From an uncultured Gammaproteobacteria bacterium (GTDB lineage Bacteria; Patescibacteriota; Microgenomatia; UBA10105; UBA927): a stretch of 64,000 nt of DNA. Made by a program: the position numbers and the translations under genes. Shown in pieces: positions 3 to 8,051 of this stretch (position 1 is the first letter of the stretch; each line of letters opens with the position of its first letter). Location: contig CAYUKU010000002.1 of assembly GCA_964445435.1 (NCBI GenBank), forward strand, positions 47,988 through 111,987, read 5' to 3'. Under the pieces are notes generated by a model that saw nothing but the letters and a program-made list of their open reading frames with translations, did no database searches and had not been told where the DNA came from.

Positions 3-3000
3 TTGGCATCATACAGTGAGTCCAGAGGTTCTAATCTGGCGAACGAAATTTTCACAGATTACTTTACCAGGCGAGTGACGGAACAATCTTCAAACATGTT
101 CGGTTGGATAGCGCATTTGAACTACCGCGTATTCGGCAATAATTACGGCGGGAAGATGACATGGGTGCCGCTTCTACTAAACGCGCTGGATCAGGGGGAG
201 ACTCCAGGCACAGCTGAGCGCATGCTTGCCCATTCGTATTTCGCAAAACCTGGCTCGGAAGAGGATTTTATCAATTTTTTGGAACGAAAGTTGGGTTCTG
301 ACAAGGCTCAGGAAGCGCTAACTGTCATGAAGACCATCTATTCTTCGGATCCCGCGAAAGATAATGAAGAGAAGACTCGAGCGCTGCGTGTCATTTTGGG
401 TGACGTCAGTCAAGGCGTCTTCACAGATGTTGATTGTGGCGGGCTCATTACTCTCGTGGGAAAGGTGTATGCGCGGGACGGCGCGCTGTGCGTGGTGTTG
501 CGTCCGGGTGAAGAGTATGTCATTACCCGATCTTTCGGAGTAAAAGAAGTAGTAAAGATTCCAAAGATTGGTCTTTATCGAAATATTGACGCGCGGGGTA
601 GAACATTTACTCACTTCATCTTTAACCGTGTTTCTTATCCACCAGGACAAACGGTGGTGATAGACGCAGTGTTAGGATCTGGATTAAATATCGTTATTGA
701 ACCGGGAGACTCAGTTGAACCCAAAGCGCAGGTAGACGCTCGCTACAGACAGCTGCCTCTGATTGTGTCTAGTTCTTCTGACGAATCTGTTATTCATGGA
801 TACGAACAGATACGCCAAAAATTGGGGCTTCGAGGGTCGTTTACTTCGGTTTCTGATGTTCTACGGTTTCTCAGAGCATTGCCGCAGGATGCCATGCTCT
901 ATCGCGGTGCTGACTTTGGGACACGCCGGTACGACTGGACGCTGAACAGGGAAAAAGCGATCGGTTTTGCGGATAACGGTGCTTTTTCAAGGGGACACCC
1001 CGTTGTCCAAGCTATACGAGTACAGGATGTGCTGCGTGCTTACGATGCATTGCATATCACAGACCCATCGACCGTATTCGTTCTGGAATCGGCCGGGAGA
1101 TTTGATATTTCTTTCAGTGAAAGCGAAGTATCGGATGCGATGCTTAATCAGATAGAGGTAGCGGAATTCCGTACGGATGTATCGCAGGATCAGAAGATTC
1201 GTGAGAACAGAGTGCGAATTTCTCTGCGTGCAGCCGGCTATGCCGTGCCACTCTTCCGTGATACAGGCGCTGCGTATCTCGCAAATCGTGCTGCAGAATC
1301 CGATCGGGGTGCGCTTTATCAAGCATATGCAGCAGTGCGTGAGATCATAGATAGGACAAAAGCGGAGCGTAAGGGCTTACCACTCCTGAGTCAGGCTGAC
1401 TTGATCAAAAAATCAGATGTCTACGCATCCATAGAGGAGAGACTTATTGTATCCCGGCGTGTTAAGGGTAGTGAGACATCCGCACATGATCTTTCCCGCC
1501 TGCTTCACAATGCCCTATTCGCACAGCTGCAGGCATTGGAGCCCTCCCTGAATCTTCATGATGAACTTGTGTATAGCAAGGAAGATATTCTTGAATCAGC
1601 GCTTCTTATTGACCACACCTACTATATATCTGCAATGATGAGCGGGAAGGAAGATGTGCGATATCTCTTCGGTGAAGACGCATGGGACGGATGGAAAGCA
1701 GCCAGAGCAAAAATGAGAACATTGAAGCTCCAGGACGCAACCATCGATGACATTGAAGAAGTGTTCCGTACTATTGCGCCAAAGAATGATTCGTACCGCA
1801 CTACTGCGGTTGTTGGAGCGTCATTTAACAGTAATTCCATGTTGCGTACCTCGACGATTATTGGGGGATCGTTTGACCGATTAGGCGAGCCGATTTCGCT
1901 CACACTGGAAGAAATAGCCCAGGTCCGGGCAAACCCGCTGCTACGGTGGATTCCATCAGGAGTCGTATGGAGAGGAAAACAAGCAGGCCGCGTCCTCTAT
2001 CCGACGGTTGATTCGCTTTGGAGTTCGCCCGACGATACAGATGCGGCAATCCGTTCGGTGCTCAGTCAGGGAGCGTTTGCGATGTTTGAGCAGGGTGGAA
2101 AAACAAATGAGGCCTTGGTCCGCGCGCTTATCTCGGATCTGCTTACTTGGTATAAATCCGAAATTGTGAAGCCAAACGCTGATGTTATCGGCATAGCTGG
2201 GGAATTTCAGCGCAGGTTCGTTTCCATTCATCCTTTTGACGATATCAACGGACGTATGTCTCGTATTCTTATGAACCGAATACTGGAGGAAAACGGTTTG
2301 AAGCCAAGTATTGTCATGCACCCCGAAGCGGATTATTTCCATACGGCGAACCGATGGAGGAGTGAGATTGAAGAAGGAATGACTCGGTATCGCGAAATGG
2401 AACGCATACTGGATGCTATAGATTTTTCCAATCAACCTACACTCTCCGAGGTCGCGGCCGCTGTCAATCCTGTTCTTCTTAGAAGTCTGTGGGTCACCCC
2501 GGAGAATGCAATTCCGAGCATTCAGTTGTCAGCACTCCCATTTGAGGAGATATCCGACGTGGTGAGTGCATACGAAATCCCGCCTGGTTCGTCTCTCATA
2601 AACGCAAATGGTCCTGAACGTTTGAGAGCGGGGCATCGGGTTCTCCGAACTCGATTATCGGACGGTTCTTATGTATACAGTATCGTTGACAGTGAAGGAA
2701 GGAATATATTCCGAAGCAGCGCCAATGGTGCGAAAAATGAGTTGGTTATTGGTACGGTAACAAACCGTTGGGATGACTATGCGCGCTCAGTTAGCTATCT
2801 CGCCCGGTTTAACCCGTTCCCATACCTGCCGCTTCGTCATGCGTCATTTGATCAGGCCTTCCGTGTATTAAGCGACAAATGGCTCGTTAATCCATTCGGG
2901 ACCTATATCGGCTCGTCTGAAGAGCGGATACGGTATTTCGGCGATACCAGCCGCACTGGAAGAATAGCCACGAGAAGAAATTTCCTGACAGATGAAACCC

Positions 3001-8051: not shown

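Follow-up and report, generated by a model that had tools for sequence, protein, structure and literature searches.

The first 8 kb of the DNA analysed in this work, a 64,000-nt stretch of contig CAYUKU010000002.1 that is called the window throughout, are one genuine giant gene (3..8051, + strand). Its product is a member of a lineage-specific modular protein family encoded at a fixed chromosomal position beside envelope-glycan genes. On a single membrane-spanning chain it combines a Fic domain, in which the active-site motif is non-canonical, with a C-terminal domain that is predicted, from its sequence pattern and its modelled fold, to be a gluzincin of the lethal-factor/PPEP/MtfA fold class (PPEP, Pro-Pro endopeptidase) with an intact active-site signature. 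A beta-rich domain with a cysteine loop, present in three copies, is by sequence comparison a new domain. The protein may be a surface-displayed, envelope-anchored multi-enzyme protein for cell-cell interaction, a reading that is put forward tentatively and at somewhat less than an even chance.

Extent of the giant gene and its family

The open reading frame (ORF) consists of 2682 sense codons with zero internal stops, ends with TAG at 8049-8051, and is open at its 5' end at the edge of the window. A coding score, calculated as codon-usage log-odds and trained on eleven Pfam-supported genes from the same window, was above zero for frame 0 in 16 of 17 overlapping 200-codon segments and below zero for frames 1 and 2 throughout; the sole dip in frame 0 (-0.013) corresponds to a low-complexity linker rich in Pro, Thr and Gln (P/T/Q). 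The GC content at third codon positions (GC3) is 0.38-0.54, somewhat below the 0.58 of the reference genes. Residues 3-168 match, at 57% identity, a segment inside the giant ORF of locus L011 (Candidatus Gottesmanbacteria UBA5942), and the window protein is therefore truncated at its 5' end. These results agree with a preliminary description, made from the nucleotide sequence alone, in which a single ORF was seen to span the first 8 kb and to continue upstream. The first beta repeat starts at aa 134 in the window protein and at aa 2231 in P0001, a protein of 5985 aa encoded on a JGI metagenome contig; if the two proteins are collinear, about 2100 aa of the giant probably lie upstream of the window. 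A query with aa 1-400 retrieved no upstream or N-terminal part from GTDB genomes, JGI metagenomes, or IMG/VR.

P0001 is collinear with aa 408-1708 of the window protein (41% identity, 1352 columns, 980 bits). The shared span comprises the helices preceding the Fic domain, the Fic domain itself, a module named X2, hydrophobic cluster 1 and repeat 2, and P0001 also bears the P/T/Q linker and the zincin. Its additional parts are a GGDEF-like domain and a PRTase-CE domain, the latter between repeats 2 and 3. Another giant, at locus L003, is 55% identical over aa 2197-2677. At the locus of one relative, L002, two adjacent giant genes (1-9922 and 10001-15736, both on the + strand) encode 7778 aa and then 1911 aa (P0002) and lie 78 nt apart. 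The tail of the 7778-aa giant, without BLAST similarity to the window giant, bears an intein, into which a NYN nuclease domain is inserted, and a methyltransferase. Module X1 (aa 260-407) and the insert formed by hydrophobic cluster 2 and the YkoP domain are specific to the window protein, with cluster 2 alone recurring elsewhere. Among the relatives retrieved, and the fetched parts of related giants, only P0001 adds the Fic core; the combination, called unusual in the preliminary description, is rare.

The genes downstream follow one order in the window, in the P0001 locus (L001) and in the P0002 locus (L002): a gene of ~185 aa, a polytopic protein of ~780 aa, a polytopic NPCBM protein of ~600 aa, proteins of ~210 and ~570 aa, and then glycan genes, with 49-69% identity to the window. 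In contrast to these neighbours, the giant is conserved in a single core (41% identity) and differs elsewhere. When the species representatives of GTDB were scanned with the NPCBM protein of the window, 40 loci were obtained; those with informative names belong to Candidatus Gottesmanbacteria, Woesebacteria, or the 'Patescibacteria group', and the best match has 72% identity. An ORF of 1600 to >2600 aa that runs off the fetched stretch occupies the same position in 17 of the 22 loci with enough flank. Because the syntenic neighbour genes match, the window is assigned, on this sequence evidence, to Candidatus Gottesmanbacteria, a candidate phyla radiation (CPR)/Patescibacteria group. Many of the records with an NPCBM gene 52-72% identical and with shared synteny (L003-L040) are titled 'uncultured Gammaproteobacteria bacterium', and these titles look like placeholder mislabels.

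No description of giant proteins of Gottesmanbacteria was found in the literature. To judge from the searchable literature, the family and its architecture appear to be undescribed, as do the Cys-loop repeat and X2; the Fic, gluzincin and YkoP domains are of known kinds.

Enzymatic domains and accessory modules

The Fic (Fido) domain is recognized by the Pfam model PF02661 with 31.9 bits in the whole protein and 37.5 bits in the isolated segment (cutoff 24). Among PDB entries it matches the BT_2513-like structure 3cuc at E 1e-7, or 3e-12 with a two-sequence profile; the same kind of profile matches FICD at E 3e-8, and the Fic domain of IbpA is also among the PDB matches. Fic proteins of Bacillus plasmids are 27-28% identical along aa 576-771, an alignment from which it follows that the entire Fic domain is present. 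The active-site motif, HPFDDINGRMSR, retains H743, N749, G750, R751 and R754, and has Ile748, not Gly or Ala, at position 6. The Fic motif has been given as HXFXX(G/A)N(G/K)R, with G or A at position 6 (PMC3173180). Gly or Ala at this place is a matter of the canonical AMPylase subtype and not of the Fic fold. The closest relative, P0001, has the canonical motif HPFRDGNGRLSR, with Gly at the position equivalent to Ile748. On these sequence comparisons the domain is a genuine Fic domain with a non-canonical motif, as the preliminary description had proposed in reporting a variant of the Fic/Doc-type motif, and the Ile variant may alter its co-substrate.

No convincing conserved inhibitory helix of the form (S/T)xxxE(G/N) was found in the BLAST alignment to Bacillus Fic proteins or in the comparison with P0001. 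In the BLAST alignment the Bacillus SNAIEGN pairs with TTAVVGA of the window domain, where the Glu is absent, and an SEIEEG sequence at aa 787-792 of the window domain is not kept in P0001. A natural 'E-to-G' deregulated inhibitory helix was considered and dropped, the alignment being ambiguous. Searches of other kinds returned generic Fic proteins: tblastn with the whole protein gave plasmid Fic proteins only and no phage match, PADLOC and PHROGs gave only Fic-level matches, and a metagenome scan with an alignment of the Fic core gave two generic Fic loci and nothing else.

The C-terminal Cys-rich region with HEVLH, which the preliminary description had regarded as a possible zincin, lies where the motif occupies aa 2558-2562 (nt 7674-7688) with six Cys in three close pairs nearby. 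The C-terminal 1200 aa (aa 1483-2682) were used to query 1.84 billion representative proteins exhaustively with HMMER, which found 85 proteins; 20 of these share the zincin domain, C-terminal in those examined. The sole invariant residues in a 19-sequence alignment of the domain are H2558, E2559, H2562, E2625 and Y2649, and the H-E-x-x-H, E and Y are likewise intact in the zincins of the GTDB-locus giants of L003, L010, L011, L012, L014, L017 and L033. Glu2625 (nt 7875-7877), which stands within DYEMFA, is the putative third zinc ligand on the basis of an alignment with PPEP-2. That alignment comes from a PDB profile search in which PPEP-2, at E 1.4, was below significance, and in which the two proteins aligned at HExxH and at E-x-F-A...P-x-x-Y-E-F.

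The predicted fold of the domain is similar to structures of the lethal factor/PPEP/MtfA (M34/M90) family. The comparison gave scores of 9.1 for both MtfA (3dl1) and PPEP-2 (6fpc), 9.0 for PPEP-3 (9g0j), and 9.0, 8.5 and 7.6 for domains of anthrax lethal factor. Together with the pattern of invariant residues, the predicted fold supports the zincin proposal. Sequence identity to M34 (lethal factor, Pro-Pro endopeptidases) and M90 (MtfA) is 13-20%, and the window zincin differs from both in its three Cys pairs, in an N-terminal extension, and in always ending giant membrane proteins. The Pfam and NCBIfam models gave no match on aa 2341-2682 even at E 10, nor did a PDB sequence search. The domain, which is too divergent in sequence for M34 or M90, is best regarded as a separate, new family of this fold class.

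The Cys-loop beta domain is ~110 aa in length, and its three copies have a pairwise identity of ~43% (BLASTP E 1e-19 to 1e-21). The preliminary description gave a triplicated beta-rich repeat with spacings of ~1500 and ~540 aa; three copies are indeed present, ~1450 and ~545 aa apart. They are located at the borders of cassettes, copies 2 and 3 immediately after a membrane helix. The domain was also found in L012, L014, L030 and P0002, and P0001 has three copies.

Two further modules are X1 and X2. X2 is 60% identical to P0001 over 311 aa, above the 53% of the Fic domain; no relatives beyond P0001 were detected in the retrieved sequences, Pfam, or PDB, giving two sequences in all. The motifs LYRGAD, AFSRG and SESEV in X1, and LWRGAEY, SPFTSTTT and AQTALIGG in X2, were seen by eye and, with C3-type toxins in mind, would make these modules no more than tentative candidates for R-S-E ADP-ribosyltransferases, a class marked by Arg, Ser-Thr-Ser and (Q/E)xE motifs; in X2, Q-T-A occupies the place of the Glu of the ADP-ribosyltransferase (Q/E)xE. 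Piecewise searches of Pfam and of PDB sequences left aa 1-130, the repeats, X1, X2, the linker and the zincin without a match. Zero matches were returned by k-mer homology searches with the whole protein and with its N-terminal part, which are weak negatives because the candidate list, limited to 8000 entries, was probably filled by uninformative words.

In the helical region that precedes the membrane segments, aa 1311-1366 additionally match P0001 2383-2436, and aa 1274-1368 are matched by L041. Linkers equivalent to the P/T/Q-rich one are present in P0001 and P0002. The preliminary description was correct about the composition of this linker and less so about its NPVT-like tandem repeats: NPVT occurs three times as a loose peptide motif, and Tandem Repeats Finder detected no tandem repeat at the DNA level.

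For the YkoP domain (PF22790; cutoff 27) the score is 32.4 bits when the segment is taken alone and 26.8 bits when the whole protein is scanned, and ~60 small YkoP-like proteins match aa 1872-2076 with E down to 5e-26. No relative of the YkoP profile was found in PDB, and the literature on YkoP is uninformative. This domain, the conserved domain at aa ~985-1265 and an overlapping partner gene (8035-8598) were not among the features listed in the preliminary description. The coordinates of all features are collected in Table 1.

Table 1. Features of the giant protein and its partner gene, in window coordinates
Feature	Position (nt)	Strand	Basis or remark
N-terminal segment, aa 1-130, not the true N-terminus	3..392	+	L011 match; no Pfam match
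Cys-loop beta repeat copy 1, aa 134-257, Cys145/Cys163	402..773	+	BLASTP and HMM domains
Module X1, aa 260-407	780..1223	+	Unaligned in P0001; no Pfam or PDB match
Start of conserved core, aa 408-575, helical	1224..1727	+	P0001 alignment, 47% identity overall
Fic (Fido) domain, aa ~576-830	1728..2492	+	Pfam PF02661, PDB and Bacillus Fic matches
Fic active-site motif, aa 743-754	2229..2264	+	His743, Ile748
Module X2, aa 840-1270, best-conserved part aa ~985-1265	2520..3812	+	P0001 alignment
Helical pre-membrane region, aa 1271-1395	3813..4187	+	Motif recurring in relatives
Hydrophobic cluster 1, aa 1397-1579	4191..4739	+	Hydropathy peaks; conserved in P0001
Cys-loop beta repeat copy 2, aa 1586-1717, Cys1597/Cys1617	4758..5153	+	
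Hydrophobic cluster 2, aa 1795-1910	5385..5732	+	Hydropathy
YkoP domain, aa 1931-2070, predicted cytoplasmic	5793..6212	+	Pfam PF22790
Single transmembrane helix, aa 2104-2122	6312..6368	+	4 K/R before, 0 after
Cys-loop beta repeat copy 3, aa 2130-2245, without Cys-loop head	6390..6737	+	
P/T/Q/A-rich linker, aa ~2263-2385	6789..7157	+	Composition
C-terminal gluzincin domain (predicted), aa 2441-2680, three Cys pairs	7323..8042	+	HEVLH, Glu2625, Tyr2649
Conserved partner gene, 187 aa	8035..8598	+	Start overlaps giant stop by 17 nt

Membrane topology and possible function

About nine hydrophobic helices are present in the window protein. The two clusters of the preliminary description were both found, at aa 1397-1579 and 1795-1910, together with a further helix at aa 2104-2122 that it had not listed. 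Cluster 1 contains four clear helices (1446-1464, 1484-1502, 1512-1530 and 1556-1574), preceded by one or two marginal ones. For cluster 2, homology over aa 1708-1857 was found with the C-terminal ends of P0074 (E 4e-13) and the L021 giant. Helix 1446-1464 has 0 Lys or Arg (K/R) before it and 4 after, and the K/R counts suggest that the loops 1465-1483 and 1531-1555 are inside the cell and repeat 2 outside. Similarly, they suggest an inside position of the basic loop 1846-1864 and of the basic stretch after aa 1906, which therefore makes the YkoP domain cytoplasmic. Around helix 2104-2122 the K/R distribution suggests an outside position for repeat 3, the linker and the zincin, and the Fic-bearing part would share it if cluster 1 has four helices.

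The cysteines of the protein follow a similar division. There are 11 in all, namely C145/C163, C1597/C1617, the three zincin pairs, and an unpaired C1985 in YkoP; the paired Cys are confined to the repeats and the zincin, in agreement with the K/R topology. Residues 164-1596 (1433 aa) contain zero Cys, for 12.4 expected (P 4e-6) at 0.86%, the frequency across ten cytoplasmic enzymes of the window, whose cytoplasmic enzymes range from 0.3 to 1.5% Cys. P0001 has zero Cys in aa 1-2241 (P 4e-9) and in 2261-3651. Cysteine exclusion has been described as a property of exported proteins in monoderm bacteria (PMC2823432). From the K/R distribution and the paired Cys we infer surface display of the C-terminal half.

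If the protein is indeed a surface-displayed factor of cell-cell interaction, the membrane helices would anchor it in the cell membrane, YkoP would face the cytoplasm, and the cell surface would carry the beta domains together with the P/T/Q stalk and a disulfide-bonded zincin. The Cys-free cargo, Fic and X2, would be exposed to, or passed into, a partner or host cell, where Fic would modify target proteins using a nucleotide co-substrate, possibly one changed by the Ile variant. The zincin would cut surface proteins of the other cell or process the giant itself. That modules are shuffled among close relatives is consistent with selection arising from conflict between cells or from attachment. 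A more elaborate version is a long shot: the giant would be a CPR-specific membrane-embedded platform that displays or delivers Cys-free cassettes (Fic and X2 here; GGDEF, PRTase-CE and nuclease in relatives) to a host, the Cys-loop domains would be borders and processing sites, the zincin would release the cargo, and Fic, in its Ile variant, would work with a donor that is not ATP. Such cargo release would be analogous to MARTX autoprocessing, but with unrelated parts.

Several points weigh against surface display of the whole protein in cell-cell interaction. The topology was obtained from Kyte-Doolittle hydropathy and flanking K/R counts, not from a trained predictor. The enzymatic roles of Fic and zincin are predicted from sequence, Ile748 could impair nucleotide binding, and Foldseek, in which the top matches for the zincin were all zinc metallopeptidases, MtfA included, remained below significance (best E 0.012). 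No secretion system, delivery device or host was identified, and the episymbiotic lifestyle generally known for CPR bacteria is putative for the source organism. The remaining points also favour an inward-facing scaffold, in which repeat 1, X1, Fic and X2 are cytoplasmic, with nothing outside but the stalk, the zincin and repeats 2 and 3. As a housekeeping or signalling envelope factor of this kind, the giant would let Fic act on the cell's own proteins, coupled to an external protease that matures the envelope, S-layer or glycan components encoded next to it. In P0001 a signal peptide is lacking and no hydrophobic helix is convincing up to aa ~3430, and its N-terminal 3400 aa, including the Fic and GGDEF-like domains, would thus be cytoplasmic by default; both of these enzyme types need nucleotides, ATP or GTP. 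A marginal fifth helix at aa 1397-1435, stronger in P0001 (3430-3448, hydropathy 1.76), would if real yield an N-in topology compatible with the K/R pattern, and the locus is always found among glycan and GT-C-like membrane genes. The significant exclusion of Cys in the presumed cytoplasmic part is hard to reconcile with such a scaffold when set against the Cys content of the cytoplasmic enzymes of the window; repeat 1 also keeps the Cys pair conserved in copies that any model places outside, and the modules are reshuffled while neighbours stay 50-70% identical, which is unusual for a housekeeping factor. The inward-facing scaffold is held to be rather unlikely, though the main competitor. Whether the Fic module faces in or out is a matter of conflicting evidence and is the main uncertainty of the present work.

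A contact-dependent polymorphic toxin, with zincin and Fic hitting competitors and the ~185-aa downstream gene encoding the cognate immunity protein, is improbable. A small gene directly after the C-terminal domain of the giant (here overlapping it), seen in six of the seven loci with the closer zincin subtype, would be expected of such a system, as would the variable domain content and the occurrence, both nearby and among relatives, of toxin-antitoxin genes and HINT modules. However, the C-terminal tip is variable in such systems and the zincin is here the most widely conserved module; internal clusters of membrane helices are atypical; the partner is membrane-anchored and has no similarity to known immunity families; and no recognised trafficking, pre-toxin or RHS/FHA-type (FHA, filamentous haemagglutinin) domain was found in P0001 or in the 2682 aa available, which stop short of the true N-terminus. 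Thus, where the preliminary description saw a resemblance to episymbiont giants and polymorphic toxins, the CPR lineage holds by the syntenic genes, and the defining features of polymorphic toxins were not found. It is more improbable still, to the point of being nearly dismissed, that the 8-kb frame is an artefact, either an assembly chimera or separate genes fused by sequencing errors. The two adjacent giant genes of L002, the X1 and cluster-2/YkoP insert unique to the window, and a GC3 below that of the neighbours could be cited for it. They are opposed by 2682 consecutive sense codons with frame-0 signal throughout, by a repeat-linker-zincin order that recurs in many genomes, and by collinear independent assemblies, P0001 over aa 408-1708 and L003 over aa 2197-2677. 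Neither the frameshift or chimera nor the matches to separate genes that the preliminary description had named as possible refutations were encountered.

Neighbouring genes and comparison with known systems

The partner protein has a C-terminal hydrophobic anchor, a basic KKK tail and zero Cys. Its orthologues in L001, L002 and L003 are 49-61% identical and directly downstream of the giant, and more distant ones are present in L012 and L014. No match to known families, immunity families included, was found. Next to it, convergent to the giant gene, two polytopic proteins are encoded at 9194-13418 (- strand), one of 783 aa with no Pfam match and one of 608 aa with a C-terminal NPCBM domain and without Cys; their synteny is conserved across ~40 Gottesmanbacteria-type loci. 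At the relatives' loci, the gene upstream of P0001 (L001 1-2037, + strand) ends in a domain that by eye is FHA-like in the phosphopeptide-binding sense; its counterpart at the window locus would lie beyond the window. Small toxin-antitoxin genes (YafQ, BrnT/CopG) are inserted at L001 25179-28788 and at L002 16288-16795 and 20790-21325, and are absent at the corresponding places of the window.

Farther along the window, at 35427-40140 and 33747-35324 (both on the - strand), two large TPR-repeat proteins of 630 and 934 aa adjoin a PMT_2-type glycosyltransferase in a long surface-glycan biosynthesis island with DegT aminotransferases, epimerases and GT2 enzymes. About 11 tandem paralogous ORFs of 300-535 aa are located at 47827-62604 (+ strand), with 20-37% pairwise identity and E values as low as 1e-91; a single hydrophobic segment lies near the N-terminus of each, Pfam matches none of them, and the array looks like an expanded secreted or membrane-anchored family. 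Inside this array, but on the - strand (50038-51264), lies a gene whose 408-aa product has a Pretoxin-HINT/Hint module (PF07591, E 4e-13). GC skew is above zero in all 32 consecutive 2-kb intervals of the window (1-64000), irrespective of gene strand, and no tRNA or Rfam match was found in its 64,000 nt.

Functionally, the nearest known counterpart is IbpA, which is large, lies at the surface and bears two Fic domains and, at its C-terminal end, a protease (PMC3173180). IbpA (Histophilus somni) and PfhB2 (Pasteurella multocida) resemble the window protein, itself putatively surface-displayed, as very large surface proteins that join Fic to a C-terminal protease. IbpA, however, has two-partner secretion and filamentous-haemagglutinin repeats, a protease of another class and no membrane helices, and the remaining modules are not shared; Pfam gave no match to a two-partner secretion or FHA domain in the window protein or P0001. 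FICD/HYPE, a membrane-anchored metazoan Fic protein, is described as a type II endoplasmic reticulum membrane protein with Fic on the non-cytosolic side (PMC8910494). It differs in its single-pass anchor, TPR domains, canonical motif and inhibitory Glu, whereas the window Fic is without a clear conserved inhibitory helix.

MARTX toxins are single giant polypeptides with varied enzymatic effector modules, the set of which differs between strains. The likeness lies in the multi-effector giant polypeptide and the difference in the window protein being polytopic in the membrane (for MARTX context, see PMC10153396). No MARTX glycine-rich repeats, cysteine protease autoprocessing domain, or type I secretion signal was found in the window protein. 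SPEARE proteins have reportedly been proposed for Huberarchaea. Giant proteins of Omnitrophota and other uncultured bacteria have been described in a study with no mention of Gottesmanbacteria, Patescibacteria, or Fic (bioRxiv 10.1101/2023.11.21.568195). Both these giants and SPEARE are like the window protein in being very large, multidomain and associated with the envelope, and in coming from uncultured microbes that are putatively predatory or symbiotic, but their domain content differs.

A large part of bacterial diversity belongs to the CPR/Patescibacteria, and little is known of the means by which these very small cells attach to others and exploit them. The locus reported here offers a concrete conserved candidate, a giant envelope protein of Gottesmanbacteria at a fixed position with two recognisable catalytic domains; with it come a partner gene that is also conserved and two or more domains without recognisable relatives. 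It also provides a natural Fic variant with Ile in the phosphate-binding loop, for which an orthologue with the canonical Gly is available for comparison, and a predicted new branch of lethal-factor-like zincins. The pattern of cysteine exclusion may be usable to predict the exposed parts of such giants.

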